Assembly (NCBI GenBank): GCA_903831265.1 | Contig: CAIKXD010000174.1 | Span: 44,064-108,063, forward strand | DNA: 64,000 nt | Source: an uncultured Bacteroidota bacterium | Lineage (GTDB): Bacteria > Bacteroidota > Bacteroidia > UBA4408 | Direction of reading: 5' to 3' | Shown here: positions 1,635 through 31,223 of the stretch, piece by piece | How the letters are laid out: each line of letters starts with the position of its first letter | How positions within the stretch are numbered: the first letter of the stretch is position 1 | Position numbers and translations under genes: made by a program | The notes under the pieces: model-generated | What the model was told of the DNA's origin: nothing | Databases searched by the model: none | What the model saw: the letters and a program-made list of their open reading frames with translations, nothing else

Positions 1635-1687
1635 TAACAATAAATATGTTGGCACATCATATTGTTAAACAAATAAATAACAACAAA

Positions 1688-10458: not shown

Positions 10459-10531
10459 AAAGCATAAAATCCTGTTGATTAATTCTAAAAAACAAATCGC
10501 TTTTTTAAGTTTAAAGCACAAACATAGCTTC

Positions 10532-11689
10532 ATGAAAAACAGTTTTATTTTTATATTGTATTTAGCAATGAGCTTTTCAAAAGGCTATGCGCAGCAAGTA
10601 GGACATGCAACCATCACATTAGTTGACCCCGCAAGAAACAACAGGCAAATAGCTACAGAAGTTTATTATCCAGCAACAACTGCTGGTAACAATACGCCTA
10701 TTGCACCTGGTGCTTTTCCTTTAATTACTTTTGGACATGGTTTTGTGATGACATGGAGCGCCTATCAAAACTTTTGGGATATGTTGGTTTTGGAAGGCTA
10801 TATTGTTGCCTTTCCAACCACCGAGAGTGGAATATCTCCCAATCACACCGAGTTTGGGAAAGATTTAAAATTTTTAATTTCTACTATGCAATCCAATGGA
10901 GCAGGAGCAGCGTTTACAGCAACCAGTGTGGGTAACACATCCGCCATTATGGGGCACTCCATGGGTGGTGGCAGTTCATTTTTAGCTGCACAAAACAATG
11001 CGCAAATTACCACCTTGGTTAACTTTGCTGCTGCAAATACCAACCCTTCATCAATAACAGCTGCGCTGCAAGTTTCGGTGCCTACCTTATTATTTAGTGG
11101 TGTTAATGATTGTGTTACACCTCCGGCACAGCATCAGGATTTGATGTACGATTCAACCAATGCAGCTTATAAAACTCAAATTAATATTACTGGCGGAGGA
11201 CACTGTTATTTCGCAAACTCAAATTTTAGCTGCACTTTTGGAGAAAGCACATGCTCTCCAAGCCCTAGCATTTTAAGAGAAGAACAGCAAGATGTAACCA
11301 ACGATCTTTTAAAACTATGGTTAGGCTATTTTCTAAAAAATGATTGCCAAGATGCTCAGGCATTTCAAGATTCGCTTGCTTCGAGTACAAGAGTTACATT
11401 TCGTCAAAATCAATCTATAGCATGCGTTACGGGTCTTCAGGCATCTGTAAATGCAGATGCTTGTAGTGTTTTTCCTAATCCTTTTTCTAACCAAGCAACC
11501 GTGGTGTTAAAAAATGAACCGATAATGAAAATTGAAGTTTACAATGGAATGATGCAACATGCAGGAGCATATTTATTTTCAAACGCTAGAAACAAGGAAA
11601 CAGTTGATTTTACGTACTTCGATAGCGGTATTTATTTTATAAAAGTAAATAATACCTACTGGGAAAAAATTGTGAAAGTGGGTTTTTAA
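10532..11689 (+). CDS. Secreted alpha/beta-hydrolase of the cutinase/PETase-like (dienelactone-hydrolase fold) polyesterase type, with a C-terminal T9SS (Por) sorting domain.
   Basis: Signal peptide MKNSFIFILYLAMSFS. Nucleophile elbow GHSMGGG as in TfCut2, LCC and IsPETase. NDCVTP...IYDS Asp region and GGGHCYFANS His region match the PETase catalytic triad context. C-terminal VFPNPF...IEVYNGMMQ Por tail. Confidence 0.6.
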   Translation: MKNSFIFILYLAMSFSKGYAQQVGHATITLVDPARNNRQIATEVYYPATTAGNNTPIAPGAFPLITFGHGFVMTWSAYQNFWDMLVLEGYIVAFPTTESGISPNHTEFGKDLKFLISTMQSNGAGAAFTATSVGNTSAIMGHSMGGGSSFLAAQNNAQITTLVNFAAANTNPSSITAALQVSVPTLLFSGVNDCVTPPAQHQDLMYDSTNAAYKTQINITGGGHCYFANSNFSCTFGESTCSPSPSILREEQQDVTNDLLKLWLGYFLKNDCQDAQAFQDSLASSTRVTFRQNQSIACVTGLQASVNADACSVFPNPFSNQATVVLKNEPIMKIEVYNGMMQHAGAYLFSNARNKETVDFTYFDSGIYFIKVNNTYWEKIVKVGF

Positions 11690-14032: not shown

Positions 14033-14953
14033 CTAATGCTTCACAGTAATTTTTCCGGAAGATAACACAGCGGCATTTTTATCTCTTACAGTATAAAAAT
14101 ATAAGCCATTGGCTAAGTGACCCACACCAAAAGTTTCAATTTTTGAGTTTACTCCAAAACTTTCAACAAGCTTTCCGTTTACATCTAAAATTTCAATTTC
14201 TTTTGCTTTTGAGATGCTTCCAAAATCAATGGTAACAAACTCATTGGCTGGATTTGGTGTAATTTTGATACTTTCATTTTTTATGGCCTCTACAATACCT
14301 GTATTAATGGTTCCCCATTTTAAATCATCTATCCATAAGCTGCTTCCAACTTGTGCATTAACTAAATCACTGGAAGATACGGCAATAACACAGGTGTCAG
14401 GTATAACATTTGTAGGTACTGTATAATTTATAACGGCATATTTTAATGTAAACTCGTTAATTGTACCGCTCACATATGCAATTCCTAGCCCTATAGTATC
14501 TCTTTTATTTGTGCCATTATAATTAAATTTCGTCATTGCAACACTAACAAAACCAGAATCAGAGTTTACTGGAGCATATCTCACAAAAAACGCTAATGAG
14601 TCTTTTCTGTTGCTGTATGGGAATCCAAGTTTAATACTTACAGCAGGGAATGGTATGATAGAACCTGTTAACATTAACCCAGAAACATCTGGAACTAAGC
14701 CCCCTGTATTTGAGCTAAGACCGGGAATTGATTTCGTTTTAATATTGGCAGACTTTGAACCCCAATGCCATATAACAGTGTCTTCCTTTACAATTGGAGG
14801 TGTGCCCGCTAAAATATTGGCTGATGTCCAACCTTGAGGATTAGTTCCTAACCCACCAAAGGGAATTTCAAATCCGAAATCAGGCTGTCCTTGCGCAAAA
14901 GCACTCATTGTAAATAAAGTCCCAGTGAAGAGGGTAAGTAAAAGTTTTTTCAT
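14033..14953 (-). CDS. Secreted protein of unknown function with a C-terminal T9SS (type-A Por) sorting domain.
   Basis: Signal peptide MKKLLLTLFTGTLFTMSAFA. C-terminal ITPNPANEFVTIDF...ILDVNGKLV...GLYFYTV...KITVKH. Confidence 0.55.
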   Translation of the reverse strand: MKKLLLTLFTGTLFTMSAFAQGQPDFGFEIPFGGLGTNPQGWTSANILAGTPPIVKEDTVIWHWGSKSANIKTKSIPGLSSNTGGLVPDVSGLMLTGSIIPFPAVSIKLGFPYSNRKDSLAFFVRYAPVNSDSGFVSVAMTKFNYNGTNKRDTIGLGIAYVSGTINEFTLKYAVINYTVPTNVIPDTCVIAVSSSDLVNAQVGSSLWIDDLKWGTINTGIVEAIKNESIKITPNPANEFVTIDFGSISKAKEIEILDVNGKLVESFGVNSKIETFGVGHLANGLYFYTVRDKNAAVLSSGKITVKH

Positions 14954-16737: not shown

Positions 16738-16745
16738 TAAATTTG
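16738..16745 (+). promoter_or_regulatory. Candidate Bacteroidota sigma-A -7 element (TAnnTTTG) upstream of the giant adhesin gene.
   Basis: TAAATTTG lies 30 nt upstream of the ATG at 16775. No convincing -33 TTG, so this is weak. Confidence 0.3.
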
Positions 16746-16774: not shown

Positions 16775-19700
16775 ATGATGTTAAAAGATTTACACTGCAA
16801 AAGAGATTCAGGCAAAAGCAAATTTGGTTCTTTCCGAAATTTGTTCTCTATTTCTGTTATTACATTGATAGGGCTTATAGCGCCTGTAAAAGCTACCAAC
16901 TTTACTGTTTCCAACACGAACGATAATGGACCCGGTTCTTTCCGAGCCGCGTTAGTATCCGCCAATTTTGATGCAACCGCAACAGCAGGTTCGCCTCATG
17001 TTATTGATATGACAGGAGTGTCAGGCACTATTGTTTTAGATTCGGCTTTAGCTGATATTAGAAACCATGTAAGCATAAATGGTCCCGTTAATAATAGTTT
17101 GTCTGTTGAAAGAAATATAGCCGTTGCTTCATTCTCTGTATTATCTATTAAACCTGTTGGCTTTGCTGCCATAACGGTTCAGTTGAATAACTTAATACTT
17201 ACCAAAGGTTCAAGCTTAACAGGTGGTGGTTTATATGTTGAAAACACAAACCTTACAATTAACAATTGCCAAATTACCAAAAATTTTGTAAATAATGGTT
17301 TAGGCGGTGGTCTTTGCACCAATAACGCTAATGTAACCATCAACAATACAACAATTGATTACAACCTTAACTTAGCTGGATTGGGTGGCGGTATTTACAT
17401 GAATTTTGGCTCACTTTTAATGAACAATTGTACAGTTTTTGGCAACAGAGCTGCTATTGGGGGTGGTTTAGATAAAGCAACCATTGGAACTGTAATCATT
17501 AAAAACTGTACTTTTGCTTTTGATACAGCCGATGATGTTGCAGGTGGAATCTATATCAACCTTGGAAGTGTTGAAGCCAATAATACTATAATTACAGGAA
17601 ACACTGCTGTAAATGGAGCCAGTGCTGTTTTTGGCAACCTAGCTTCAACCAATGGGCACAATTTAGTGGACAATCCTTTAGGAATGAATTTTACAGGCAA
17701 TACTACTGGTAACTTAATAGGATTAGCGACAAACTTTGTACTAAGTAATGAATTGAAAAACAATGGTGGAGTTACCCCAACGGTTTTGCCTCTTGCATGC
17801 AGTGCAGCTATAGATGCAGGAACAAGTGTTGGAGCAACAATTACAGATCAAAGAGGGTTTGTTAGAGCAAACTTCGGAACTGCCTATGATATTGGCGCTA
17901 TAGAATACAGTGGGCCTATTGTGGAAGATTTAAATGTGTGCGGCACACAAACCATTAATATAGTTGCATCTGGCTCAACCAACTACCGATGGTATGATGC
18001 CGAAACAGGTGGAAATATTATATTAGAAGGATCAAATGTTTTAACTGTTACGGTAAGTAGCGATACAACTTTTTGGGTTGTTGATTATACTCCTGATTGC
18101 GAAAGTACCATTCGTGTTGCAGTAAATGTTAGTCAGTTTTCGCTTGCTGTGCCTCCAGTTATCTCTGCAAATGGTAATACTAGCTTTTGTCAAGGAGGTT
18201 CAGTTTCTTTAAATTCAACTACATCGCCCGATTATGTTTCATATGCTTGGGTGCCTAATGGTGAAACTACTACTTCAATTACAGCCGAAAACTCAGCAAG
18301 TTACAGTGTAATAATTACTGATATTAATGGTTGTACAGCTCAATCTAATTTAATTAATGTTTCTGCAAATCCTTTGCCAATACCAGTGATATCACCCAAT
18401 GGCTCAACGATTATTTGCCAAGGTTCAGGTGTTGTTTTAACATCAAACTTTACCACTGGCAACGTATGGAGCACAGGCGAAACAACACAAAGTATAACTG
18501 TTAGTGCTGCATCAACCATTACATTAACTGTTACAGATGCCAATGGATGTATTGCAACATCAGCACCGGTTGAGATTTCAATTGTCCCTAATGCACCTCC
18601 CGCTCCAATTATTACTGCATCTGGTAATCTTGATATTTGTGTTGGTTCAACAGTAACCCTTACCTCTAGTTATGTAAGTGGAAACATTTGGTCGCCTAAT
18701 GGAGAAATTACTCAAAGCATTGATGTAAATGCTCCTGGAACCTATGCAGTAACTTTTACCGATGCCAATGGATGTTCAGCTATTTCTCAGCCTGTTACGA
18801 TTACATTTTTACCACAACCTCAAACACCTACTGTTAATGCAAATGGCGCAACAACATTTTGTGAGGGAGGTTCAGTAGTTTTAGATGCACAACCTGCCAC
18901 AGGAAATATCAGCTGGACACCAGGAAATGTTTTGGGAGGTTCATTAACTGTAACAGCTAGCGGGAGTTATTTTGCAACTTTGACAGATGTTAATGGTTGT
19001 TCAGTTTCTTCTGCTCCAATTAATGTTGTGGTTGAAGAAAATCCAGTACAACCTTCAATAAATGCATTTGGACCAACAACATTTTGCCAAGGTAGCAATG
19101 TTACCCTTTTTAGCAGCAGTAATACAAATAATTTATGGAGCCAGGCCAACGAAACTTCCAACACGATTGTTGTTTCAAACGCTGGTTTATATACAGTAAC
19201 TGTTACCAATGTGGCAGGTTGCTCAGCAACTTCTGACCCTGTTGAAATAACAGTACTTACAAACCCAACAGCGCCTATTATTAGTGCAAATGGTCCAACC
19301 ACATTTTGTGTTGGGGGCACCGTTACTTTAACTTCAGACATCTCAAATAATATAGTTTGGAATACCACCGAAACAACTTCCAATATAAATGTTTCACTTC
19401 CTGGTGCTTATAGTGTAATTACCACCGATGTTAATAACTGTAGTTCTCAATCAAATGTAATTAATGTTGTTGTTAACAATCCTGGTTTGGCGTCCATTTC
19501 TGGAAATAATCAATTTTGTGTTGGTGGCTCAACAACCTTAACTGCGGTTAATGGTTCAAGTTTTGTATGGTCGCCAACAGGCGAAACAACGCAAAGTATA
19601 TCAGTTGCTTCTCCTGGAATTTACAGTGTAACTATTTCAGGTGTAAATGGGTGTACTTCAGTTTCAGCTCCATTTTTGGTAACATCTTTTGTAAGTAATC

Positions 19701-22700
19701 CAATAACGGTTACACCAACTGGAACAGTTCAAATTTGTGATAATGGTGCTGTTACTTTAACCTCATCTGCTGCTTCTGGAAATGTTTGGTCGCCAAATAA
19801 TGAAACAACAACTTCAATATCAGTTTCAACGGCTGGTGATTACTTTGTAACATCTACAGATTTAAATGGTTGTTCAACAGTTTCAAATACTGTTACAGTA
19901 GTAGTTTTACCTGCACCACAAACACCAATCATTGATCCTGCTGGACCAATAATTCAATGTGGAGGAAGCGTAGTTTTAGATGCTGGGCTAATTCAAGGTG
20001 TTACTTATTTATGGAACGACAATATTACTACCACGCAAACAAATACAGTTTCTCAGTCTGGAACCTATAGCGTTGCCGTAACTTCAACAAATGGGTGTAC
20101 CAGTGTATCTAATCCAGTAAGTGTTTCTATTGAAGCTTTACCAATTGTTAATTTGGGGAATGATGTAACACAATGTGGAGGCACTGTTACACTAAACGCG
20201 GGCAACCAAGGCGCTACTTATTTATGGAGTAATGGGGCAACAACTCAAACTGTTGTGTTAAATGCATCAGCTTCAATTAGTGTTACCGTAACTAATACTT
20301 GTGGAAGCACTACCAGCAATACAGTAAATGTAACAATTAATAACTTACCAACTGCCGCAGTTATTAGTCCAGCTGGTCCTATTGAATTATGTAATGGAAG
20401 TAGTCAATTACTTTCTTCAAATGCAAATACGGGAAATGTTTGGTCTCCTAATGGTGAAACAACCCAAGATATTACAGTTAGCACTGCTGGAAGTTATTTT
20501 ACAACAGTAACAGATGCAAATGGTTGTTCGGCTGTTTCTAATATAGTTGTAGTTTCTGTTAGCAACCCAATTGCGCAAGTTAACATTGGTAATGATGTTA
20601 CGCAATGTGGAGGTACAGTTACTTTAAATGCAGGAAATCCGGGTTCAACATATTTATGGAGCAATGGTCTTACCAATCAAACAATTTTGGTTTCTACTTC
20701 AGGTATATATTCTGTTGATGTTACAAACGCCTGCGGCACAGTAACTAGTAATAGTGTTAATATTGTTATTAATACTCTTCCTTTTGCACCTATAATTTCT
20801 CCGGGTGGTCCAGTAGTATTTTGTCAAGGAAACTCGGTGGTGCTAAGCTCATCAGAGTTAACTGGCAATGTTTGGTCAACAGGAGCAACTACACCCTCTG
20901 TAGTTATTTCAAACAGTGGTTCATATACTGTTACATTTACCGATGCTAATGGTTGTACAGCTGTTTCAGCCCCAATAGTTGTAACTGAAGATTTTCCATT
21001 AAATGCTCCTAACTTGGGAGGCCCTTTTGTACAATGTGCCGGTTCGCTTCTTTTAGATGCTGGTAATGGTATTGGAAGTACTACTTATCAATGGAGCACA
21101 GGCGCAACTACCCAAACTATTTCAGTAAGTCAATCAGGAGTTTATAATGTTGTACTAACAAATACTTGCGGAACTGTTCAAAGCACAGACGCCCAGGTAA
21201 CAATTAATCCTATTCCTGCTGCGCCGGTAATTACGCCATTAGGTCAGACTACTTTTTGTGCTGGCGGTTCATTAATTTTAAGTTCAAATATTGCCAATAA
21301 TATTACATGGAGTACAGGCGAAACAACGCAAACAATTACAGTTACTCAAGGCGGTGTTTATTCGGTTGCTTTTAATGATGGTAACAATTGTAGCAGCAGC
21401 TCTTCCATAACAGTAACTGTTCAAAATCCTCCAATTGCAACAGATTTAGGAGGTCCTTTTTCACAGTGTGGTGGCAGTGTAACATTGGATGCTGCAAACG
21501 CAGGACCTGGTAACTTGTATTTATGGAATAACAATGCTACAAGTCAAGTTTTAACTGTTCAACAAAGTGGAACTTATTTTGTAACTATTGCTAACACTTG
21601 CGGATCGGTGCAATCAAGTTCTGCAGTTGTAAATATATTAACTGTACCACCTGCGCCAGTAATAACAGCAAGCGGTTCAACAACCATCTGCTCTAATGAT
21701 TTTGTAACTTTAACAAGTGATAACCAACAAAATTATTTGTGGAGTAATAATGAAACTACACAAAGTATAACAGTAAACCAATCTGGAAATTATTCTGTAA
21801 CATTTACAGCTGCTAATGGCTGTAGTGCCACTTCGAATGTCATTCCTGTAAATGTGCAACTTCCACCTACAGCAACAGACCTAGCTGGTCCATTTACACA
21901 ATGTGGGGGTACAATTACTTTAGACGCTGGTAATGCAAATATTGGTGCAAGCTATTTGTGGAGCAATGGAGAAACTACTCAAACTATTGTGGTTTCAGCC
22001 TCAGGAAACTATTCGGTTCAAATTTCAAATGCATGCGGAACCGTTGCAAGTACTATTGCCAATGTGACCTTGTTTAATACTCCAAATGCCCCTGTTGTTT
22101 CAGCTAATGGGGTTACTAACTTCTGTCAAGGAGGATCTGTTGTTTTAACCTCTAATATAGCAAATGGAATTCAATGGTCTAATAATGAAAGTACGCAATC
22201 TATTACTGTTTCAGCTTCAGGAGATTATTCTGTATTATTTACGGATGCTAATGGATGTACCGCTACTTCAAATATTATAACAGTAGTTGTAGACGCTCCA
22301 TTGGTTGCTCCTAATCTTGGTGGTCCTTTTACACAATGTGGTGGTACTATTACTTTAGACGCTGGTAATGCCTCAACTAACAACAATTACTTGTGGAGTT
22401 CTGGCCAAGTATCGCAGAGCATTAATGTAAATACAAGTGGTAATTATTTTGTTACCATCACTAATTCTTGTGGAAGTGTTACAAGTACAACAGCCGTTGT
22501 AACCATAAACCCATTACCGCAAACGCCAATAATTTCAGCAAGTGGTCCTTTAGTATTTTGCCAAGGTGGTGATGTAACTTTAACTTCAAGCAGTGCAACT
22601 GATAACCTGTGGTCAAACGGTTTAACCACTCCATCGATAACAGTAAATGCATCAGGTATTTTTTCAGTGAGTGTTGTTGATGCCCTAGGATGCAGTTCAA

Positions 22701-25700
22701 CTTCATTGCCAACTACTGTAGTTGTTGATGAGCCTCTGTCAACAGCTATTACGCTTGGTGGCCCTTTTACACAGTGTGGAGGTACAATAACTTTAGATGC
22801 TGGAAATGCTAATGTAGGCGCTTCTTATTTATGGAGTAACGGTGCAACAACTCAAACTATCTCTGTTTCGCAAAGTGGTAATTATTCAGTGGTGATAAAC
22901 AACGCCTGTGGAACTGTAACAAGTGATACAGCAAGTGTTACTATTTCACCTGCAGCGCAAACACCTATCATCACTGCAAACGGCCCAGCTACTATTTGTC
23001 AGGGGGATTCAATTGTTTTAACATCCAGCGAAATTAACAATATTCAATGGACTCCAGGTGCAGCAACTACACCAAGTATTACAGTAAATCAATCAGGTGT
23101 TTATACAGTAACTGTTGATAATGGAAATGGATGTACTGCTGTTTCCCAGTCGTTCACCGTAACACTTTTGAATAATATTACACCTGTTACTTTGGGTCAA
23201 GATATTACACAATGTGGTGGAAGCGTTAATGTTGATGCTGGTGCTCAAATAGGCGCTACTTATGTTTGGACAGATTTAACAGGAAACAATCAAATCCCCG
23301 GCGCTCAGATTGCAAATTTAACCAGCAGTGGAACTGTATTTGTTGTGGTAAGCAATCAGTGTAATAGCGAAACCAGCGATACAATAAACGTCTTAATAAA
23401 CCCATTGCCAACCACACCTTTAATTCAAGCCAACGGACCAACCAGCTTCTGTGTTGGCGACTCAGTGCAATTGGAGGTAACAAATGTTCAACAAGCTCAA
23501 AACATAATTGTAAATGGTCAGTTTGATGGCGGAAATAGCGACTTTACAACACAATATATTTATCAAAACAATTTACAACCAGAGGGAACAACTTTTGTAA
23601 CCTCAAATGCGAGCTTAAACCACCCAGCATTTGTAGGAACTGGCCAAGGTGGCGTTGGTAACTTCTTGGCGGTAAATGGCTCCTCAAATGGCGGTCAGTT
23701 TATATGGAAACAATCAATAACAGTTATTCCTAATCAAACATATGATATTTCGCTTTTTCTTGCTTCTTTGGTTGCCAATAATAATTCAGGCAGTATACAA
23801 TTAAGAGTTGATGGCGTAGATGTTGGGCCTGTTATGAATTGTCCAGGCCCTGTAAATACATGGGTTCCTTACAGTAATTTATGGACAGCAGGCGCTTCTA
23901 GCTCAGCCAGTGTTTCATTGCACAGTATGAACAGTGCGTCTGGTGGTAATGATTTTGCTGTTGACAACATTCAAATGATTTGTACTAGTTGTGCAGGAAG
24001 TTTAAACTATCAGTGGAATACCAATGAAATCGGCACTTCAATTTATGCCGATACAACAGGTTCTTATACAGTTACTTTAACCGATGCGAGTGGATGTTCT
24101 GCCACCTCATTACCTATTGATGTAATTGTGCAAACACCGCCAACGGTTAATTTAGGAGGACCATTTACACAATGTGGTGGTTCTGTAACTTTAGATGCTC
24201 AAAATCCTGGATCTACTTATTTATGGTCAAATGGTGCAACAACTCAAACAATAGCAGTTTCTGCGCTTGGTACAACTTCTATTACTGTAACTGTTAATAA
24301 CACGTGTGGTTCATTTACTTCGCAACCAGCCACTGTAACTATTTTAGCAGCTCCTTCGCAAGCAACAGTAACAGCTAATGGCTCAACTACATTTTGCCAA
24401 GGCGATTCGGTAGCTTTATTTGCTAGCGCTGGAGCCTCTTACTTATGGAGTCCAAATAATGAAATAAGCCAATCAATAGTTGTTAATCAATCGGGTAATT
24501 ATTCCGTTCAAGTAACTGCAGCAAACGGATGTACCTCAGTTTCAAATGCTATAGGAATAACAGTGCTATCTGGTGCAGGAAGTCAAGCTCAAATTACAGC
24601 CAATGGTCCTACTGAATTCTGTATTGGGGGCTCAGTTTTGTTGTCATCAAATAATCCAACGGGAAATCAATGGAGCAATGGTTCAAATCAACAAAGCATA
24701 ACTATTTTTAATGCCGGAACTTATATACTTAACGTGGCCAATAGCAATGGTTGTTCTTTAGGCAGCGATACGGTAATTGTTACTACTTTATTTAACCCAA
24801 CAGCGGTAATTACTTTAAGCAACTCTCCACAGCTTTGCGCAGGTGATTCAATTATATTGACTGTTAACGAAAATGCATCATACCAATGGACACAACTTTT
24901 AAACAATCAAAGTATTAATATTGGTACAGATTCTACTATCACTGTTGACTCTGCAGGCACATACACAGTAATAGTAACAGGAGCAAATGGTTGTACAACT
25001 ACTGCTCAATCTGTTTCGGTTTCTACAGCACCTGCGGCTCAAGTTCCAATTATAACAATAAATGGTCAATTATCTTGCGGCGCGGGATCAGTGGAGTTAG
25101 TAGCAACAGGAGGTTCTAATTTCCAATGGAGTAATGGCTCAAACTCTTCATCTATAACAATTACTCAACCAGGTTTATTTGCGGTTACTTCACAAAATAT
25201 TTTTGGGTGTGTTGCCACATCGGATTCTGTTTGGATACCACAGGGATTAAGTAATATGCAAATTAGTTTAGATGCCTTGATTTATGATAATGGATTTTGG
25301 AATGTACGTTGTCCGAAAGGGAGCGATGGGCAGATTACAGCAGTTGTAACAAATGGACAAGAGCCATACACTTATGCATGGGCTACGGGCGAAACTACAC
25401 AAATGATTAGTGGCCTAAAAGCAGGTGAAGATAATGTGTATAAGGTTATTGTAACTGATGCTTTTGGCTGCACTGTTGAGGGATCTACCACATTAACTGA
25501 ACCTCCTGCTGCTTTAGAAAAAATGCCTAGAGGTTTTTCACCTGATGGAAATGGGGTTAATGATGAATTAATTATACCTGGAATTAAAGTATTTGTTACT
25601 AACAATGTTACCATTTTTAATAGATGGGGGAATGAAGTTTACAACAGCGAAGGTCCATACCAAAACGATTGGCTAGGCCGAGGAAAAAATGGAGAAGATT

Positions 25701-25795
25701 TGCCAGAAGGCACCTATTTTGTAGTTTTCACGGCTGACTCGCCCGAATGCGGTAAAGTAGATGAAAATCGTTGGATTGAACTAAGACGTAAATAA
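16775..25795 (+). CDS. Giant (3006 aa) SprB-like cell-surface adhesin. It has an N-terminal right-handed beta-helix region, a long array of SprB-type Ig-like repeats, an internal CBM4/9-like domain and a C-terminal type-B T9SS domain (gliding motility-associated CTD).
   Basis: Signal peptide. G-rich beta-helix repeats (GGGLY.., GGGIYMN, NTAVNGA) within the first ~370 aa. More than 25 repeats of ~75-80 aa with the conserved C..G...L....G..W..GETT.SI.V...G.Y.V....NGC pattern. C-terminus FSPDGNGVNDELII...IFNRWGNEVY...GEDLPEGTYFVVF matches TIGR04131-type CTD. sprF-like gene immediately downstream. Confidence 0.8.
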   Translation: MMLKDLHCKRDSGKSKFGSFRNLFSISVITLIGLIAPVKATNFTVSNTNDNGPGSFRAALVSANFDATATAGSPHVIDMTGVSGTIVLDSALADIRNHVSINGPVNNSLSVERNIAVASFSVLSIKPVGFAAITVQLNNLILTKGSSLTGGGLYVENTNLTINNCQITKNFVNNGLGGGLCTNNANVTINNTTIDYNLNLAGLGGGIYMNFGSLLMNNCTVFGNRAAIGGGLDKATIGTVIIKNCTFAFDTADDVAGGIYINLGSVEANNTIITGNTAVNGASAVFGNLASTNGHNLVDNPLGMNFTGNTTGNLIGLATNFVLSNELKNNGGVTPTVLPLACSAAIDAGTSVGATITDQRGFVRANFGTAYDIGAIEYSGPIVEDLNVCGTQTINIVASGSTNYRWYDAETGGNIILEGSNVLTVTVSSDTTFWVVDYTPDCESTIRVAVNVSQFSLAVPPVISANGNTSFCQGGSVSLNSTTSPDYVSYAWVPNGETTTSITAENSASYSVIITDINGCTAQSNLINVSANPLPIPVISPNGSTIICQGSGVVLTSNFTTGNVWSTGETTQSITVSAASTITLTVTDANGCIATSAPVEISIVPNAPPAPIITASGNLDICVGSTVTLTSSYVSGNIWSPNGEITQSIDVNAPGTYAVTFTDANGCSAISQPVTITFLPQPQTPTVNANGATTFCEGGSVVLDAQPATGNISWTPGNVLGGSLTVTASGSYFATLTDVNGCSVSSAPINVVVEENPVQPSINAFGPTTFCQGSNVTLFSSSNTNNLWSQANETSNTIVVSNAGLYTVTVTNVAGCSATSDPVEITVLTNPTAPIISANGPTTFCVGGTVTLTSDISNNIVWNTTETTSNINVSLPGAYSVITTDVNNCSSQSNVINVVVNNPGLASISGNNQFCVGGSTTLTAVNGSSFVWSPTGETTQSISVASPGIYSVTISGVNGCTSVSAPFLVTSFVSNPITVTPTGTVQICDNGAVTLTSSAASGNVWSPNNETTTSISVSTAGDYFVTSTDLNGCSTVSNTVTVVVLPAPQTPIIDPAGPIIQCGGSVVLDAGLIQGVTYLWNDNITTTQTNTVSQSGTYSVAVTSTNGCTSVSNPVSVSIEALPIVNLGNDVTQCGGTVTLNAGNQGATYLWSNGATTQTVVLNASASISVTVTNTCGSTTSNTVNVTINNLPTAAVISPAGPIELCNGSSQLLSSNANTGNVWSPNGETTQDITVSTAGSYFTTVTDANGCSAVSNIVVVSVSNPIAQVNIGNDVTQCGGTVTLNAGNPGSTYLWSNGLTNQTILVSTSGIYSVDVTNACGTVTSNSVNIVINTLPFAPIISPGGPVVFCQGNSVVLSSSELTGNVWSTGATTPSVVISNSGSYTVTFTDANGCTAVSAPIVVTEDFPLNAPNLGGPFVQCAGSLLLDAGNGIGSTTYQWSTGATTQTISVSQSGVYNVVLTNTCGTVQSTDAQVTINPIPAAPVITPLGQTTFCAGGSLILSSNIANNITWSTGETTQTITVTQGGVYSVAFNDGNNCSSSSSITVTVQNPPIATDLGGPFSQCGGSVTLDAANAGPGNLYLWNNNATSQVLTVQQSGTYFVTIANTCGSVQSSSAVVNILTVPPAPVITASGSTTICSNDFVTLTSDNQQNYLWSNNETTQSITVNQSGNYSVTFTAANGCSATSNVIPVNVQLPPTATDLAGPFTQCGGTITLDAGNANIGASYLWSNGETTQTIVVSASGNYSVQISNACGTVASTIANVTLFNTPNAPVVSANGVTNFCQGGSVVLTSNIANGIQWSNNESTQSITVSASGDYSVLFTDANGCTATSNIITVVVDAPLVAPNLGGPFTQCGGTITLDAGNASTNNNYLWSSGQVSQSINVNTSGNYFVTITNSCGSVTSTTAVVTINPLPQTPIISASGPLVFCQGGDVTLTSSSATDNLWSNGLTTPSITVNASGIFSVSVVDALGCSSTSLPTTVVVDEPLSTAITLGGPFTQCGGTITLDAGNANVGASYLWSNGATTQTISVSQSGNYSVVINNACGTVTSDTASVTISPAAQTPIITANGPATICQGDSIVLTSSEINNIQWTPGAATTPSITVNQSGVYTVTVDNGNGCTAVSQSFTVTLLNNITPVTLGQDITQCGGSVNVDAGAQIGATYVWTDLTGNNQIPGAQIANLTSSGTVFVVVSNQCNSETSDTINVLINPLPTTPLIQANGPTSFCVGDSVQLEVTNVQQAQNIIVNGQFDGGNSDFTTQYIYQNNLQPEGTTFVTSNASLNHPAFVGTGQGGVGNFLAVNGSSNGGQFIWKQSITVIPNQTYDISLFLASLVANNNSGSIQLRVDGVDVGPVMNCPGPVNTWVPYSNLWTAGASSSASVSLHSMNSASGGNDFAVDNIQMICTSCAGSLNYQWNTNEIGTSIYADTTGSYTVTLTDASGCSATSLPIDVIVQTPPTVNLGGPFTQCGGSVTLDAQNPGSTYLWSNGATTQTIAVSALGTTSITVTVNNTCGSFTSQPATVTILAAPSQATVTANGSTTFCQGDSVALFASAGASYLWSPNNEISQSIVVNQSGNYSVQVTAANGCTSVSNAIGITVLSGAGSQAQITANGPTEFCIGGSVLLSSNNPTGNQWSNGSNQQSITIFNAGTYILNVANSNGCSLGSDTVIVTTLFNPTAVITLSNSPQLCAGDSIILTVNENASYQWTQLLNNQSINIGTDSTITVDSAGTYTVIVTGANGCTTTAQSVSVSTAPAAQVPIITINGQLSCGAGSVELVATGGSNFQWSNGSNSSSITITQPGLFAVTSQNIFGCVATSDSVWIPQGLSNMQISLDALIYDNGFWNVRCPKGSDGQITAVVTNGQEPYTYAWATGETTQMISGLKAGEDNVYKVIVTDAFGCTVEGSTTLTEPPAALEKMPRGFSPDGNGVNDELIIPGIKVFVTNNVTIFNRWGNEVYNSEGPYQNDWLGRGKNGEDLPEGTYFVVFTADSPECGKVDENRWIELRRK
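18120..25230 (+). repeat. Intragenic tandem array of SprB-type Ig-like repeats (~225-240 nt each). Between ~20150 and ~24350 it is organised as a higher-order ~435-nt unit alternating two repeat subfamilies.
   Basis: Recurrent nucleotide blocks seen directly, for example ggtggtccttttacacaatgtggtggtac...ttagacgctggtaatgc at 21890, 22320, 22760 and 24160. Protein-level periodicity. Confidence 0.8.
23513..23977 (+). other. Non-repeat ~155-aa insert within the adhesin repeat array, a CBM4/9/22-like beta-sandwich (putative carbohydrate-binding module).
   Basis: Starts NGQFDGG..DF...Y and ends GGNDFAVDNIQM, like the NG.FE.G...W ... FY.DDV boundaries of CBM_4_9. It interrupts the otherwise regular repeat spacing. 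Confidence 0.4.
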
Positions 25796-25831
25796 TAATT
25801 TAAGAATATTTAGAATTTCAATATATATCAC

Positions 25832-26752
25832 ATGAAAAAGCTAATCATTGCAGCATCCTTAATCATTTCAAGTTTGGGCTTGAAAGCACAACAGGATATT
25901 ATGCTTAGTCAATATATGTTTAATGGATTGTTCCTCAATCCTGCATATGCTGGCAGTCATAAGTACGTAAGTGCTACCTTACTTCATCGTAATCAATGGA
26001 CAGGATGGGATGGAGCTCCCAAAACTAACATTATTGGGATTGATGGTCCTTTAAGAAAACAAACGATGGGTTGGGGTTTAATTTTTGCTAACGATAAAAT
26101 TGGGCCAACTACACAAAATGATATTATGGCCAATTACAGCTACCACCTAAAACTAGGAAAAGGAAAACTTTCGCTTGGTTTAAGAGCAGGAGCATCGGTT
26201 GTTTCAAGTAATTTGCAAGGTGTTAGCACTGTAGTTGGTGGCGATGAAGCTTTTGCAACGAATATCAAAAGTTCTTTTTTGCCTAAGTTTGGAACAGGAG
26301 CTTATTATTATACAAAAAAGTATTATGCTGGGGTTTCAATACCAACATTGATAGCTCACGATCCTGCTAAAAACTTTAATTTTGATTTGAACAAATCATC
26401 CGATTCAAGAAGACACTACTTTATTACAGGTGGTTATGTATTTGATTTAAGTGATATGATAAAACTTAAACCATCGGTATTGGTAAAATATCAAAAAGCT
26501 GCGCCCATACAAGCAGATATTAACTGCAATGTTCTTATCAATAATGTGTTTTGGATAGGAGCATCTTATAGAACCAATGCAGCAGTTATTGGTATTATAG
26601 AATATCAAATAAATCCTATGTTTAGAGTTGGTTATGCCTATGATTACACTACAAATGCTATCAATCGTTATTCATCAGGTTCACACGAAATTATGATTGG
26701 AATTGATTTAGGCCATGATATTATGAAAAGTAAAAACCCTCGTTATTTTTAG
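25832..26752 (+). CDS. sprF: T9SS membrane protein of the PorP/SprF family, cognate partner for the upstream type-B CTD adhesin.
   Basis: 306 aa. Signal peptide then QQDIMLSQYMFNGLFLNPAYAG, the PorP/SprF family N-terminal signature. Lies 37 nt downstream of the adhesin. Confidence 0.8.
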   Translation: MKKLIIAASLIISSLGLKAQQDIMLSQYMFNGLFLNPAYAGSHKYVSATLLHRNQWTGWDGAPKTNIIGIDGPLRKQTMGWGLIFANDKIGPTTQNDIMANYSYHLKLGKGKLSLGLRAGASVVSSNLQGVSTVVGGDEAFATNIKSSFLPKFGTGAYYYTKKYYAGVSIPTLIAHDPAKNFNFDLNKSSDSRRHYFITGGYVFDLSDMIKLKPSVLVKYQKAAPIQADINCNVLINNVFWIGASYRTNAAVIGIIEYQINPMFRVGYAYDYTTNAINRYSSGSHEIMIGIDLGHDIMKSKNPRYF

Positions 26753-26802
26753 TTTAATTTAAGCAATAAGGAGCATTATTATACCCACAGATAAACCGTA
26801 AA

Positions 26803-28713
26803 ATGAAGAAAAATATTACCACCTCTTGTTTAGTTTTGCTTTCGCTTTTTATTTTAAGCGGATGTTCCAAGATTTATACCGCCTTAGGCGACAAAAACAT
26901 GGAGCAACTTCAATATGTTAAAGCTGCAAAAAACTACGAAAAAGCAGTTTCTAAAAAGTCGGACAATGTTGCTCAAAAAAAACTGGCAAACACTTATCGA
27001 CTGATGAATGAAACGAAGAAGGGCGTTGATGCTTATGCTAAGGTAATTAATCAACCTAATGCCGAGCCAATCGATCGTTTTTATTATGCTCAAATGTTGA
27101 TTGCAAACAAAAAGCATAGCGAGGCAGCCACCATTTTAAGAGAATATATTAAATCCAACCCTGGTGATAAAATGGCCGAAAATATGTTGAAATCATGCGA
27201 AGCTCCAGAAGCGTTTATGAAGGACACTGCAAAATATATCGTAACCAATGCTAAAATTGGAAATGTAACGGAGTTTTATGGTCCAGTGCAATACAAAGAT
27301 GGCTTAGTTATTAGTGCAAGTATAGATGGTAAAGGAAAAGATAAAGTTCCACAAACGGGAAAATCTTATTACAAATTGTATTTTACAAAAAAGGATAAAA
27401 GTGGTTCTTATTCTGCACCTGAAAAAATTAATGGAAATATCAATAAAAACAAATTGCACACTGCATCAGCAACTTACTCTAAGGATGGTAGCGTAGTTTA
27501 TTATACAACAAGCAATACCGATGGCTTATCTAACGCTGAATTACTTGAAAATGTTATTGGTCTAAAAATTAATAAAGATACCATTGCAAATGGTTCATAC
27601 CTTAAAGCAGCAGAGTTTCCATACAATAGTAAATCTTACTCTGTAGGACATCCTGCATTAACAGCAGATAGTAAAACTATGTATTTTATTTCAGACATGC
27701 CAGGTGGTATGGGCGGTACAGATGTTTATGAAACTAAATGGGAGGGTGGCAAATGGGCGCAACCAACAAACTTAGGTGAGAAAATTAATAGCGCTGGTAA
27801 TGAAATGTATCCTTTTGTTGATAGCTTAGGAAATTTATATTTTTCATCAAATGGACATAAGAGTTTAGGAGGTTTAGATATTTATAAAGCAATGAAAACT
27901 GGCAATAGTTGGTCACAAATTGAAAATTTAAACTATCCCATTAATAGCTCGAGAGATGATTTTGGATTTATGATGTATGCCGATAGCAAAACGGGTTATT
28001 TAAGTAGTAACAGAGAAGGAACCGATAAAATTTACGAGTTTATTTTGCAAGCTTCTAAGGTTAACATTGGAGGTAAAATAGTAAGTAAGGTTGATGGAAA
28101 ACCTATTGCGGGTGCTAAAATTGCTGTTACTGATAAAGCTAGAAATATAACAGATACAATTGTTTCGGCTGAGGATGGAAGTTACGCTTATGCATTAGCT
28201 CCAAACACAGATTTTGATGTTACTGTATCAAAAGATGGATTTTTTAGCCAATCCGAAGATATCACAACAGTTAATCAAGTAGGAGATATTACTAAAGATT
28301 TCTCATTGGAAGAACTAGTAAAAGGAAGGCCTGTTGTAATTGACCAAGTCGATGACAAAGGGGTAAGACCAATATTTTATGATTATGATAAATCTGAAAT
28401 CAGACCCGATGCATTTGAGGCATTAAATAAATTAGTAAAAAGATTAAAAGACAACCCTAAAGTAACTATAGAGTTAAGCTCTCACACAGATTGCAGAGGC
28501 ACAGACAACTACAATCAAGATCTTTCATTTAGAAGAGCTAAAAGCGCAAAAAACTATATTGTATCTAAAGGAATCAAAGCTAATAGAATAAAAACTAAAG
28601 GTTATGGTGAAAGCCAACCTGTGAATAAATGCGTTGATGGTATTCTTTGCAACGACGATGAATACCAAGCAAACAGAAGAACAGAGTTCAAGGTAATTGA
28701 AATCGACAAATAA
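26803..28713 (+). CDS. OmpA-family lipoprotein with TPR-like N-terminal region, PD40/WD40-like beta-propeller repeats, a carboxypeptidase-regulatory-like domain and a C-terminal OmpA peptidoglycan-binding domain.
   Basis: Lipobox LFILSGC. C-terminal OmpA motifs (TDCRGTDNYNQDLSFRRAKSAKNYIV...NRRTEF). The typical PorP/SprF-OmpA gene pair. Confidence 0.8.
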   Translation: MKKNITTSCLVLLSLFILSGCSKIYTALGDKNMEQLQYVKAAKNYEKAVSKKSDNVAQKKLANTYRLMNETKKGVDAYAKVINQPNAEPIDRFYYAQMLIANKKHSEAATILREYIKSNPGDKMAENMLKSCEAPEAFMKDTAKYIVTNAKIGNVTEFYGPVQYKDGLVISASIDGKGKDKVPQTGKSYYKLYFTKKDKSGSYSAPEKINGNINKNKLHTASATYSKDGSVVYYTTSNTDGLSNAELLENVIGLKINKDTIANGSYLKAAEFPYNSKSYSVGHPALTADSKTMYFISDMPGGMGGTDVYETKWEGGKWAQPTNLGEKINSAGNEMYPFVDSLGNLYFSSNGHKSLGGLDIYKAMKTGNSWSQIENLNYPINSSRDDFGFMMYADSKTGYLSSNREGTDKIYEFILQASKVNIGGKIVSKVDGKPIAGAKIAVTDKARNITDTIVSAEDGSYAYALAPNTDFDVTVSKDGFFSQSEDITTVNQVGDITKDFSLEELVKGRPVVIDQVDDKGVRPIFYDYDKSEIRPDAFEALNKLVKRLKDNPKVTIELSSHTDCRGTDNYNQDLSFRRAKSAKNYIVSKGIKANRIKTKGYGESQPVNKCVDGILCNDDEYQANRRTEFKVIEIDK

Positions 28714-28722
28714 TTATTATAC

Positions 28723-29169
28723 ATGGCATCGGTTGGTATCAATAAAGTAATCTTGGCAGGTAATTTGGGAAAAGATCCTGAAGTTCGACATTTAGAAGGT
28801 GGAGCAGTTGTTGCTAATTTCCCACTAGCTACTACAGAGACCTACAAAGATAAAAATGGCAATAAAATTGAACAAACAGAATGGCACAACATTGTGCTTT
28901 GGAGAGCCCAAGCCGAATACGCTGAAAAGTTTTTAAAAAAAGGCTTTACAATTTTAGTGGAAGGAAAGCTAAAAACACGTACCTGGGAAGATAAAGACAA
29001 GAATAAAAGATATACCACAGAGGTTTATGGAGATAGTATTACAATATTAATTGGCAATAGAAGAGAAGATGGTATTATAGGTCAAAGTAATGCTTCTGCT
29101 GCTGGAAACTCATCTGATAATGCTAGCGCTAATCATTCTTCTGCTGTTTCAGACGATTTACAAGTTTAA
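28723..29169 (+). CDS. ssb: Single-stranded DNA-binding protein.
   Basis: OB-fold N-terminus (INKVILAGNLGKDPEVR...TEWHNIVLW). Disordered G/S/N-rich tail. C-terminal ...SDDLQV rather than the canonical D-D-(I/L)-P-F tip. Confidence 0.85.
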   Translation: MASVGINKVILAGNLGKDPEVRHLEGGAVVANFPLATTETYKDKNGNKIEQTEWHNIVLWRAQAEYAEKFLKKGFTILVEGKLKTRTWEDKDKNKRYTTEVYGDSITILIGNRREDGIIGQSNASAAGNSSDNASANHSSAVSDDLQV

Positions 29170-29184
29170 CTTAAACTAACTAAC

Positions 29185-31122
29185 TTGGACGGTTCGGTCA
29201 GTTGCCCTTTGGGCATGGTTACAGGATTTATTTTTCATGGCTTTGGGCCACAATCATTCGTAGAGTTATCTGTTATAGGTGTGCTATTGATTTTCTCGGC
29301 TATAGTTGCAGCTGCAGAAGTCTCTTTCTTTTCTTTAGCACCGGCCGATTATGAACAACTTAAGCAAGATAATAGCACCCACGCACAAAAATTAATTCAG
29401 TTATTAGATAAACCTAAAAGCCTTATAGCCACTATTGTTATGAGTCATAATTTGGTGAATATTGGCGTGGTAATTATTTCTGAAATGCTTTTTAAACAAC
29501 ACTTCAACTTTAGTGATAGTCCGTTAACAGGATTTCTTATTAAAGTTGTGGTAGTAACTTTCGTAATTCTACTTATTGGTGAGGTGATTCCAAAGATTTA
29601 TGCAGCAAAAAATCCACGTGATTTAGCTTTAAAAATGGTGTATATTTTTGATATAGTTCAAAGATTGCTGACTCCGTTTGTTTGGATCCTTGTGGGTATT
29701 GCCGGTGCATTTGATAAGCGAATAAAACAAAAAACACCCGATTTGTCGGTAGATCAACTATCTCAAGCCCTTGAGCTTACTTCAAGTGAACACACGCCCG
29801 AAGAAGAAAGGAAAATCTTACAAGGAATTGTGGAGTTTGGAAATACAGAAGTAAGTCAGATTATGAAACCAAGAATTGATGTGGTTGCTTTTGATGAAAA
29901 TACTCCGTTTTTAGAAGTTATTGACCTCATAGTAAAAAATGGTTTCTCTCGAGTGCCAATTTATAGCGAAACTTTGGATAAAGTTGTTGGGGTGCTTTTT
30001 ATTAAAGATCTTATTGCTCATCTTGACAAAGGCAATGATTTTAACTGGCAAAGTTTATTAAGGCCCGCATTTTTTGTTCCTGAAAGCAAAAAGATTGATA
30101 ATTTAATGAAAGAATTTCAGAGCAAAAAAATACATCTGGCTATTGTTGTAGATGAGTATGGAGGGACTAACGGAATTGTAACACTCGAAGATGTTATTGA
30201 AGAAGTTATAGGTGAAATTAATGATGAGTTTGACGTTGAGGAGTTGGTTTATTCGAAGCTTGACGAAAACAATTATATTTTTGAAGCAAAAATTCCTTTA
30301 AATGATTTATATAGGGTGTTGGATATTGATGGTGAGGTTTTTGAAGATAAAAAAGGAGAATCAGACACATTAGCGGGATTTATTTTAGAATTGAGTGGAA
30401 AAATCCCTGTAAAAAATGAAAAAATTTCCTTCGACAATTATGTTTTTACGGTTGAATCGGTTGATAAAAGAAGGATAAAACGAATTAAACTTACAATACT
30501 TAATCACAACCAGCAAGGTACTTTTCATGATGGAGGAAAAATAATCCCGAGTGTTTTACTGCCATTCTTATTATTGATTTCTATTTTATTTACTTCTTGC
30601 GATGAAGATTATACACCAAAACCAAGGGGCTATTTTAGAATAGATTTGCCTACAAATACGTATCAAACGATTGCAACAAATTGCCCTTTTTCTTTTGAAT
30701 ACTCAAAATACGCCAACGCAAATGTATACGAGGGCAGCCAAATTGAAAACTGCTGGTATAATATCGATTACCCTAAGCTCAACGCCACAATACATTTAAG
30801 TTATTCACCTTTACAAGGAAAAGATGACTTAGAAAAACAATTAAGCAACTCAAGAACCCTAGTTTATAAGCATACTGTTAAAGCAGATGGTATTGAGGAA
30901 ATTCCAATCAGCTATGAATCTAAAAGTGTGTATGGATTAATTTACAATTTAAGTGGCAACAGTGCCTCTCAGGTACAGTTTTATTTAACAGACAGTACCA
31001 AGCATTTTTTAAGGTGTGCCTTGTATTTTAACTCAAGTCCCAATGCCGATTCTATTGCACCTGTATTAAATTACATTAGTAAGGATATTGATAGGTTTAT
31101 AGAAACTTTTCGCTGGCAATAA
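29185..31122 (+). CDS. gldE: GldE (DUF21-CBS pair-CorC/HlyC gliding motility protein) continuing in-frame, with no stop codon, into a GldD-like lipoprotein moiety. This is an apparent GldE-GldD fusion ORF (645 aa).
   Basis: N-terminal 4-TM DUF21. CBS pair (VVAFDENTPF...; HLAIVVDEYGGTNGIVTLEDVIEEVIGEI). CorC_HlyC region (FVFTVESVDKRRIKRIKLTIL). Then a hydrophobic stretch IIPSVLLPFLLLISILFTSC with LFTSC lipobox and a GldD-like mature part (DEDYTPKPRGYFRIDLPTNTY...). No in-frame stop between the two moieties. Confidence 0.7.
   Translation: MDGSVSCPLGMVTGFIFHGFGPQSFVELSVIGVLLIFSAIVAAAEVSFFSLAPADYEQLKQDNSTHAQKLIQLLDKPKSLIATIVMSHNLVNIGVVIISEMLFKQHFNFSDSPLTGFLIKVVVVTFVILLIGEVIPKIYAAKNPRDLALKMVYIFDIVQRLLTPFVWILVGIAGAFDKRIKQKTPDLSVDQLSQALELTSSEHTPEEERKILQGIVEFGNTEVSQIMKPRIDVVAFDENTPFLEVIDLIVKNGFSRVPIYSETLDKVVGVLFIKDLIAHLDKGNDFNWQSLLRPAFFVPESKKIDNLMKEFQSKKIHLAIVVDEYGGTNGIVTLEDVIEEVIGEINDEFDVEELVYSKLDENNYIFEAKIPLNDLYRVLDIDGEVFEDKKGESDTLAGFILELSGKIPVKNEKISFDNYVFTVESVDKRRIKRIKLTILNHNQQGTFHDGGKIIPSVLLPFLLLISILFTSCDEDYTPKPRGYFRIDLPTNTYQTIATNCPFSFEYSKYANANVYEGSQIENCWYNIDYPKLNATIHLSYSPLQGKDDLEKQLSNSRTLVYKHTVKADGIEEIPISYESKSVYGLIYNLSGNSASQVQFYLTDSTKHFLRCALYFNSSPNADSIAPVLNYISKDIDRFIETFRWQ
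30553..30600 (+). other. gldD: Internal signal-peptide-like hydrophobic segment ending in a lipobox (L-F-T-S-C, Cys codon at 30598..30600), marking the start of the GldD-like moiety.
   Basis: SVLLPFLLLISILFTSC|DED read directly from the translation. No upstream in-frame ATG/GTG start nearby; the only in-frame TTG would give a 9-residue signal. Confidence 0.55.
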
Positions 31123-31223
31123 GCAGCGTGTTTATTTGTGCCAACATTAAGTGTTGTTTGGTGTTGAATAAAGCCGTCTAAAGGATATAATCATAAAATA
31201 TACAGCTGGGCTAATAGAATTGC

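Follow-up and report, generated by a model that had tools for sequence, protein, structure and literature searches.

The window analysed here is a 64-kb stretch of contig CAIKXD010000174.1 from an uncultured Bacteroidota bacterium. It carries three co-directional genes that encode a giant surface protein (the cargo), a PorP/SprF-family outer-membrane protein (the carrier) and a lipoprotein resembling PorE, a type IX secretion system (T9SS) protein. A preliminary description of this DNA, made from the sequence, had called three open reading frames of 3006, 306 and 636 amino acids (aa), and all of them were found exactly at the positions it gave. It had read the set as one module, in which a cargo whose C-terminal domain (CTD) is of type B is joined by a dedicated PorP/SprF protein and an OmpA lipoprotein, and these three family assignments hold. 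The features of the locus are listed below in window coordinates, with the evidence for each in brackets (Ig, immunoglobulin; CBM, carbohydrate-binding module; AF2, AlphaFold2 model).

16738..16745, + strand: weak candidate -7 promoter TAAATTTG, 30 nt 5' of the adhesin start codon (match to TAnnTTTG)
16775..25795, + strand: type-B cargo gene (giant fibrillar adhesin), 3006 aa (open reading frame, family scans)
16775..16891, + strand: putative Sec signal peptide, aa 1-39, ending ...LIGLIAPVKA before TN (read from the translation)
16892..17923, + strand: right-handed parallel beta-helix of the Rhombotarget-A/CSLREA/choice-of-anchor-Q kind, aa 40-383 (AF2, Foldseek, profiles)
17924..25249, + strand: array of 31 Ig-like repeats, aa 384-2825 (map of cysteine pairs, Ig_7 matches)
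23501..23989, + strand: CBM-like beta-jelly-roll, aa 2243-2405, 163 aa (AF2, Foldseek)
25301..25396, + strand: single Pfam SprB repeat, aa ~2843-2874, in the last pre-CTD unit, aa 2826-2916 (PF13573)
25523..25795, + strand: C-terminal T9SS sorting domain of type B, aa 2917-3006, with the stop codon (CHU_C, TIGR04131)
25832..26752, + strand: PorP/SprF-family outer-membrane carrier/anchor, 306 aa (TIGR03519, PF11751)
26803..28713, + strand: PorE-like lipoprotein, 636 aa (NCBIfam, Pfam domains)
in 26803..28713, + strand: lipobox LSGC with Cys21 (translation)
in 26803..28713, + strand: TPR, aa ~23-125 (Pfam)
in 26803..28713, + strand: PD40 beta-propeller, match at aa 325-361 (Pfam)
in 26803..28713, + strand: CarboxypepD_reg, aa 422-502 (Pfam)
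28360-28704, + strand: OmpA_C-like peptidoglycan-binding domain, aa 520-634 (Pfam match 525-610)

Gene order, family assignments and conservation

Short gaps separate the three genes (36 nt between cargo and carrier, 50 nt between carrier and lipoprotein), and the window holds a single PorP-like open reading frame and a single type-B CTD. The same genes occur at 99-100% protein identity on contigs of six independent lake metagenome or metagenome-assembled genome (MAG) assemblies, with cargoes of 3005-3006 aa, so the three-gene set is no assembly artefact. Judged by its nearest relatives in the genome collection, the organism belongs to the uncultured freshwater Bacteroidia and is akin to the Crocinitomicaceae, Cryomorphaceae and Fluviicola group (Flavobacteriales). 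TAnnTTTG is the -7 promoter consensus of Bacteroidota; it is not enriched in the window (103 occurrences found, 110 expected), and a sigma-70 promoter scan, based on a model unsuited to Bacteroidota, returned fewer sites than shuffled controls. Since the promoter scans were uninformative, the operon structure was inferred from the gene spacing and from a terminator-like hairpin at 31111-31128.

The CTD of the cargo was matched by CHU_C (PF13585) with 66.3 bits in the full-length protein and 75.0 bits when scanned alone (cutoff 27), and by TIGR04131 with 36.5 bits alone (cutoff 35) and 29.5 bits in the full-length protein. Both type-A models stayed below their cutoffs on the CTD (TIGR04183, 14.7 bits, cutoff 23; Por_Secre_tail, 12.9 bits, cutoff 27). 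The type-B assignment of the preliminary description is thus borne out, and the type-A outcome that it had named beforehand as its refutation was not seen. Secretion of fusions to type-B CTDs requires the cognate carrier that is encoded downstream (PMC12618676); here a PorP/SprF-like gene is adjacent to the cargo gene, beyond the 36-nt gap.

The lipoprotein was matched best, among NCBIfam models, by CHU_0125_OmpA (426.8 bits, cutoff 620, positions 1-639 of 639), and also by T9SS_PorE (393.1 bits, cutoff 600, positions 4-599 of 648). These scores lie below both curated cutoffs, and the protein is therefore filed as PorE-like and not as PorE. The PD40 and carboxypeptidase-regulatory-like domains that had been announced for an OmpA-family lipoprotein are all present, together with N-terminal TPRs that had escaped notice. 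The best match of the OmpA domain in the PDB is 6TOP ('OmpA family protein', 86 bits), which we take to be the PorE C-terminal domain from Porphyromonas gingivalis, with the SHTD...RRA core conserved in the alignment. A crystal structure of the PorE C-terminal domain is cited in PMC9143113, which describes PorE as a protein of four domains: TPR, beta-propeller, CarboxypepD_reg and OmpA_C.

Conservation of the locus was examined with one genome per species, which gave 57 loci that encode a carrier relative. In 55 of these 57, the gene directly upstream of the carrier terminates in a homologous CTD, and in 52 the gene directly downstream is PorE-like. The full triad of cargo, PorP-like and PorE-like genes is present in 50; among the seven loci that deviate, two are contig ends. 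Triads range from Flavobacteriales to Bacteroidales, where they are retained down to 34% carrier identity. Across the triads, cargoes measure between about 450 and 3300 aa. Only the closest relatives (loci L001-L013) have the beta-helix head, and the nested CBM-like domain occurs in these and in L014. The pattern is that of a conserved anchor pair with a freely swapped cargo body.

The carrier passes the family models by a wide margin, as had been predicted for the 306-aa protein (TIGR03519, 297.2 bits, cutoff 90.55, profile positions 1-291 of 292; PF11751, 290.8 bits, cutoff 22.3). Its signal peptide ends ...LKA before QQ. A search of the PDB with the carrier sequence returned no PorP/SprF structure, and a hidden Markov model (HMM) built from the 57 orthologues revealed no paralogue of the carrier in the retrieved loci of the relatives or in the window. 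The protein terminates in ...GIDLGHDIMKSKNPRYF, with a cysteine-free tail HDIMKSKNPRYF (KNPRYF), and its only cysteine lies in the motif DINCNV; the Cys-X-Cys of the periplasmic C-tail that defines SprF is absent from it. We surveyed the last 25 residues of its homologues for cysteine and found none in 56 of the 57 genomic orthologues or in any of the 120 best database homologues (176 of 177 together). All of these 120 end in K[TNS]PR[YF]F, as do nearly all of the 57 orthologues if PRQF, the ending found in Bacteroidales, is included. The best 120 of the 7450 significant matches to the carrier are 53-93% identical to it and mostly 304-323 aa long.

The sole tail cysteine among the 57 orthologues belongs to the carrier of a Tenacibaculum MAG (L060, 9965..10912, ...HESCYF). 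This locus is also among the few without a downstream PorE-like gene; it is a single case, and fits tail cysteine and PorE linkage being alternatives.

Domain architecture of the giant cargo

The N-terminus of the cargo consists of a hydrophobic stretch followed by VKA and T, judged by eye on the translation. The N-terminal right-handed beta-helix of the preliminary description is borne out. The AF2 model of aa 40-383, calculated from an alignment of 57 homologues, is an all-beta coil with a mean predicted local distance difference test score (pLDDT) of 85.8 and a predicted template modelling score (pTM) of 0.87. Foldseek placed it closest to Rhombotarget A (9CDU/9CDV, E 9e-6), ahead of Pel9A (polysaccharide lyase family PL9), PL6 lyases, tailspikes and alginate epimerases; all these matches have template modelling scores (TM) of at most 0.55, root mean square deviations (rmsd) of 7-10 A and identities of 14-18%. 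A homologue-profile search of the PDB likewise retrieved Rhombotarget A (E 2e-14), and the NCBIfam model choice_anch_Q (NF041518) matched the end of the beta-helix, at aa 326-378, with 56.6-60.9 bits (cutoff 25). Homologues of the region (n=439) are named choice-of-anchor Q, CSLREA-domain, Pmp-repeat or beta-helix repeat proteins. The suggestion of the preliminary description that the beta-helix may give the cargo a distinct binding specificity is plausible.

Most of the protein is a stalk of Ig-like units of ~72 aa, each with a conserved pair of cysteines ~44 residues apart. More than 25 repeats had been announced; we counted 31 of these two-cysteine units and one further unit before the CTD. 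Two subtypes can be distinguished, type A with the motif FCxGGSVxLTS (21 repeats) and type B with the motif QCGGTxTLDAGN (10 repeats), which are homologous to each other (hhalign 99%) and alternate across aa ~1050-2530, the middle third of the protein. Mean identity is 40% between type-A repeats and 51% between type-B repeats, and the best pair reaches 77% at the amino-acid level and 66% at the DNA level. Tandem Repeats Finder detected no tandem DNA repeats in the 9-kb gene, and such a low DNA identity even in the best pair points to old, diverged repeats, so that there is no indication of phase variation or of a recent expansion. The stalk would measure roughly 100 nm, by our estimate.

The repeats had been described as SprB-type, which by family they are not. 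They match PF19081 (Ig_7, 'CHU_C associated'), mostly weakly and with only the first unit above the cutoff, and four representative units scanned alone gave no match to PF13573 at E<=10. The sole SprB repeat of the protein lies in the pre-CTD segment, which scored 34.9 bits with PF13573 when scanned alone (cutoff 28). The commoner subtype, type A, matches the SprB-type unit over its C-terminal half only (hhalign 90%, 36 columns). A faint match of the full-length protein to DUF642 (26.5 bits, cutoff 27) was rejected; it falls on Ig repeats only and not on the inserted domain described below.

Repeat 26 of the stalk harbours a domain that was absent from the preliminary account of the adhesin. 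The insertion interrupts the Ig repeat at the loop behind its second strand; if it is taken out, the two flanks line up from end to end with the other type-A repeats. AF2 predicts it to be a beta-jelly-roll (pLDDT 95.7). In Foldseek it matched CBM16, CBM4-2, CBM22 and CBM61 structures, with TM of 0.61-0.66 and identities of 12-19%, the best being CBM16 (2ZEX, E 3e-7, TM 0.64-0.70; CBM4-2 and CBM22, TM ~0.65). The copy in the window matches no curated family of Pfam or NCBIfam, and only 8 of 30 relatives reach CBM_4_9, none of them better than E>=1e-5. The family comprises 3685 cluster representatives, with up to nine copies per protein, and is frequent in giant CHU_C and type-A CTD proteins; it is largely missed by the current Pfam and NCBIfam models. 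As a hint at a glycan ligand, which would follow from the predicted fold, the nested domain is more direct than the beta-helix.

Static or track-driven behaviour of the cargo

Experiments on related systems bear on how this cargo would behave at the cell surface. In P. gingivalis, PorE, PorP and the type-B cargo PG1035 assemble into a complex in which PorE contacts PorP and PorP contacts the cargo, and it has been postulated that PorP-like proteins alone bind mobile cargoes, whereas wall-anchored PorP-PorE-like pairs bind the non-mobile ones (PMC9143113). In Flavobacterium johnsoniae, Fjoh_3952, whose operon includes the PorE-like Fjoh_3950, forms static foci only, whereas helical movement was seen for SprB, for Fjoh_4750 and for a part of the Fjoh_1123 population, none of these three being accompanied by a PorE-like gene (PMC12618676). 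A disulfide from the Cys-X-Cys of the SprF C-tail to Cys343 of GldK couples SprF to the moving track and is needed for sustained helical movement; without the tail cysteines SprB is exported normally and is nearly stationary (PMC12635249).

The PorE-like gene is present and conserved at the locus studied here and the carrier tail is free of cysteine, which favours a static, tethered fibre over a gliding adhesin. We therefore consider it probable that the locus is a type-B cargo/PorP-like carrier/PorE-like tether cassette, and that its product is a stationary fibre tethered to the cell wall and not a track-driven gliding adhesin. By homology with the P. gingivalis and F. johnsoniae experiments, the three proteins would form a complex and behave statically, and the lipoprotein would bind peptidoglycan.

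The 3006-aa cargo would first be exported to the periplasm by Sec. The SprA/Sov translocon would then recognise its type-B CTD, and the cognate PorP/SprF-family barrel would collect it and keep it bound at the cell surface. From the periplasmic side the PorE-like lipoprotein would hold the barrel, with the TPR or the propeller binding the barrel and the OmpA_C-like domain binding peptidoglycan; a barrel tethered to the wall in this manner would render the adhesin stationary, not track-driven. The extracellular part would be a long stalk of 31 Ig-like domains with the Rhombotarget-A-like beta-helix head at its distal end and the CBM-like jelly-roll some five-sixths of the distance towards the CTD. 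In lake water it would probably serve to attach to glycan-bearing particles or cells.

Several points weigh against this interpretation. The term static goes back to one tracked PorE-linked cargo in one organism and to a postulate, and the present lineage is known from MAGs only. The Cys-X-Cys criterion was taken from PMC12635249, with no SprF sequence included as a positive control, and short track-like movements persist without the cysteines (PMC12635249). The lipoprotein is a paralogue-level relative and not a proven PorE, and glycan binding by the cargo would follow from fold similarity at 12-19% identity. Finally, the cassette lies directly upstream of ssb-gldE-gldD and the organism encodes gliding genes, so a role in motility is possible.

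The preliminary description had in fact proposed an SprB-like, probably mobile adhesin propelled by the gliding machinery. An SprF-like partner would then carry it along the helical GldJ/K/N track, and it would power gliding. A type-B CTD preceded by one SprB repeat, the half unit that type-A repeats share with the SprB-type unit, the position of gldE-gldD two genes downstream and the mobility of some type-B cargoes (PMC12618676) all agree with this proposal. We nevertheless regard it as unlikely, since a PorE-like gene stands next to the carrier gene, is found there in 52 of the 57 genomes and is missing from the mobile F. johnsoniae cargoes (PMC12618676, PMC9143113), and the carrier lacks the C-tail Cys-X-Cys needed for sustained movement (PMC12635249). 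Moreover, only one Pfam SprB repeat is present, upstream sprC/sprD-like genes are lacking, the neighbour there being a divergent universal stress protein (Usp) gene, and only the closest relatives, L001-L013, show the linkage to ssb-gldE-gldD.

The PorP-like and PorE-like proteins could also be the core PorP and PorE of the T9SS, general parts of secretion that anchor a GldK/N-type track or ring to the wall as in P. gingivalis, with the cargo as a mere PG1035-like partner on the surface and the pair not dedicated to it. The unusual conservation of the carrier clade (the best 120 of 7450 matches are 53-93% identical), the near full-length match to the PorE profile, the cargoes of ~450-460 aa, about the size of PG1035, in loci L051, L052, L059 and L063, and the characterised PorE-PorP-PG1035 complex, which also pulls down PorK/N (PMC9143113), are in line with such a function. 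Against it stand the score below the curated PorE equivalog cutoff, the five or six triads that serve F. johnsoniae as paralogous cargo-specific modules (PMC12618676, PMC9143113) and the make-up of a 3006-aa Ig/CBM/beta-helix cargo, which resembles a functional adhesin and not a cap; we give this possibility little weight. It is far less probable still that the cargo is not an adhesin in the first place but a surface glycan-degrading enzyme, with a beta-helix head that acts as polysaccharide lyase or hydrolase and a CBM that targets it. The pectate lyase Pel9A, PL6 alginate lyases, tailspike depolymerases and VexL are indeed among the Foldseek matches, a profile search of the PDB matched BcAlyPL6 (E 2.6e-10), and a CBM-like domain is present. 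However, Pfam and NCBIfam scans of the cargo gave no match to a lyase or hydrolase family, the structural matches (TM<=0.55, rmsd 7-10 A, 14-18% identity) reflect a generic similarity of fold, Rhombotarget A is nearest to the head in sequence as well as in structure, and homologues of the head bear Pmp-type repeats typical of adhesin-like passengers.

Related systems, neighbouring genes and significance

Of the known systems, Fjoh_3952/3951/3950 of F. johnsoniae has the same gene order and the same three kinds of protein, a likeness drawn from the published description and not from sequence (PMC12618676). The F. johnsoniae cargo depends on the carrier encoded directly downstream, as the present one is predicted to do, and in both the PorE-like protein carries an OmpA peptidoglycan-binding domain. 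The F. johnsoniae cargo is static by experiment and the present one by prediction (PMC12618676), and the cargo body with its beta-helix, 31 Ig-like and CBM-like domains is specific to the small uncultured lake clade L001-L013, apart from the CBM-like insert, which is also found in L014.

The genes for PorE, PorP and PG1035 of P. gingivalis are not known to be adjacent, and their products are of the same three kinds as those described here. The lipoprotein of the window shares the four-domain architecture of PorE, and its OmpA domain is nearest to 6TOP. PorP and PorE are essential core parts of the P. gingivalis T9SS, and PG1035 is a protein of ~50 kDa as compared with ~300 kDa for the present cargo, as estimated from its 3006 aa. 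In four Bacteroidales MAG loci (L051, L052, L059, L063) the cargo has ~450-460 aa, which is about the size of PG1035; the dispersed P. gingivalis genes may derive from such a triad.

The SprB/SprF pair likewise combines a type-B CTD, a carrier gene directly downstream and a giant repetitive surface protein, and in the present cargo an SprB repeat stands beside the CTD. In F. johnsoniae, sprB lies in the context sprC-sprD-sprB-sprF. The Usp gene upstream of the cargo is transcribed divergently, and the place of sprC and sprD in F. johnsoniae is therefore taken by no co-transcribed gene here. The present locus further differs in having a PorE-like gene, which does not accompany sprBF (PMC9143113), a carrier without the C-tail Cys-X-Cys (PMC12635249), repeats that are Ig_7-like and not PF13573, and an additional beta-helix and nested CBM-like domain. 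Neither a body of many PF13573 repeats, nor an sprC-sprD-sprB-sprF context free of a PorE-like gene, nor the tail cysteines of SprF was found; the cargo is not an SprB orthologue and the locus is not an SprB/SprF pair.

Two further likenesses concern single components. Rhombotarget A is a substrate of rhombosortase secreted by a type II system. The region aa 40-383 is homologous to Rhombotarget A (9CDU/9CDV) and to choice-of-anchor-Q/CSLREA proteins (profile E 2e-14), with a choice_anch_Q segment, whereas here the module heads a T9SS type-B fibre. CHU_0125 of Cytophaga hutchinsonii has the same TPR/PD40/OmpA_C make-up as the lipoprotein (PMC5891637), which scores under the family cutoff of 620. 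CHU_0125 was described as a general envelope-integrity factor, and a PorP-like neighbour is not mentioned there (PMC5891637).

Two genes follow the cassette directly:

28723..29169, + strand: ssb (directly downstream of the cassette)
29185..31122, + strand: gldE-gldD fusion, 645 aa (GldE TIGR03520 at aa 32-438, GldD TIGR03512 at aa 464-645)

In Flavobacterium, gldE and gldD are separate adjacent genes. At the junction of the fusion (...HDGGKIIPSVLLPFLLLISILFTSCDEDY...) a GldD signal-like segment and lipobox are in frame, and neither a stop codon nor an in-frame ATG, GTG or TTG separates the two parts. The same fusion is present in the six near-identical assemblies (L001-L006) and in six other species-level genomes (L007-L010, L012 and L013), whereas the L011 sequence stops short of it. 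Signal peptidase II might cut GldD free from a GldE-GldD precursor. We rejected ssb-gldE-gldD as a part of the module; its linkage to the cassette is found only in L001-L013, and mutY-ssb-gldE-gldD is an independent conserved cluster, standard in Flavobacterium (PMC5682007).

Elsewhere in the window, 1646..5809 (+) encodes a 1387-aa protein with no Pfam domain and a C-terminus that weakly matches the end of PorZ. It is followed after 23 nt by a gene for a PorV/PorQ-family outer-membrane protein (5833..6915, +; NF033709, 139.6 bits), and the two may be another cargo/carrier-like pair. Type-A T9SS sorting domains are encoded at 10475..11689 (+), 14033..14953 (-), 42606..45713 (+) and 60524..62365 (-); one of these four genes specifies an FG-GAP/ASPIC protein with Ig_7 (52.9 bits), the kind of domain that is repeated in the giant adhesin. 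A 649-aa protein encoded at 40599..42548 (+) carries the haem-binding motif CxxCH five times, gives weak MtrC/MtrF-like and cytochrome c7 matches, has a C-terminal type-A T9SS sorting domain just short of the cutoff (25.9 bits, cutoff 27), and is a candidate T9SS-secreted multihaem cytochrome. With several type-A CTD genes and a PorV/PorQ-family gene in the window, the T9SS is clearly in use.

Modules of this kind are already known: F. johnsoniae has five or six PorE-linked type-B operons, and P. gingivalis has the PorE-PorP-PG1035 complex. Specific to the present locus is the make-up of the cargo, with its Rhombotarget-A-like head, its Ig stalk of two alternating subtypes and its CBM-like domain nested in an Ig repeat. 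The locus adds an uncultured freshwater example to the type-B cargo/PorP-like/PorE-like class, which has been characterised experimentally only in F. johnsoniae and P. gingivalis. It also illustrates two sequence criteria for such loci, an adjacent PorE-like gene and missing SprF tail cysteines, both of which argue here against a gliding role; a type-B CTD next to an SprF-like gene should therefore not lead by default to annotation as a gliding adhesin. The nested CBM-like domain offers a testable hypothesis on the glycan ligand.

More tentatively, PorE-linked carriers could form a distinct and very large clade in which an invariant, cysteine-free K-[TNS]-P-R-[YF]-F tail in the periplasm (PRQF in Bacteroidales) replaces the Cys-X-Cys and docks the PorE-like tether. 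If so, tail sequence and PorE adjacency would together be a code, readable from genomes, that separates static from track-driven type-B adhesins across Bacteroidota. The cargo would then be a static fibre of an estimated ~100 nm, with a CBM nested in an Ig domain, by which planktonic lake bacteria would hold glycan-bearing particles.

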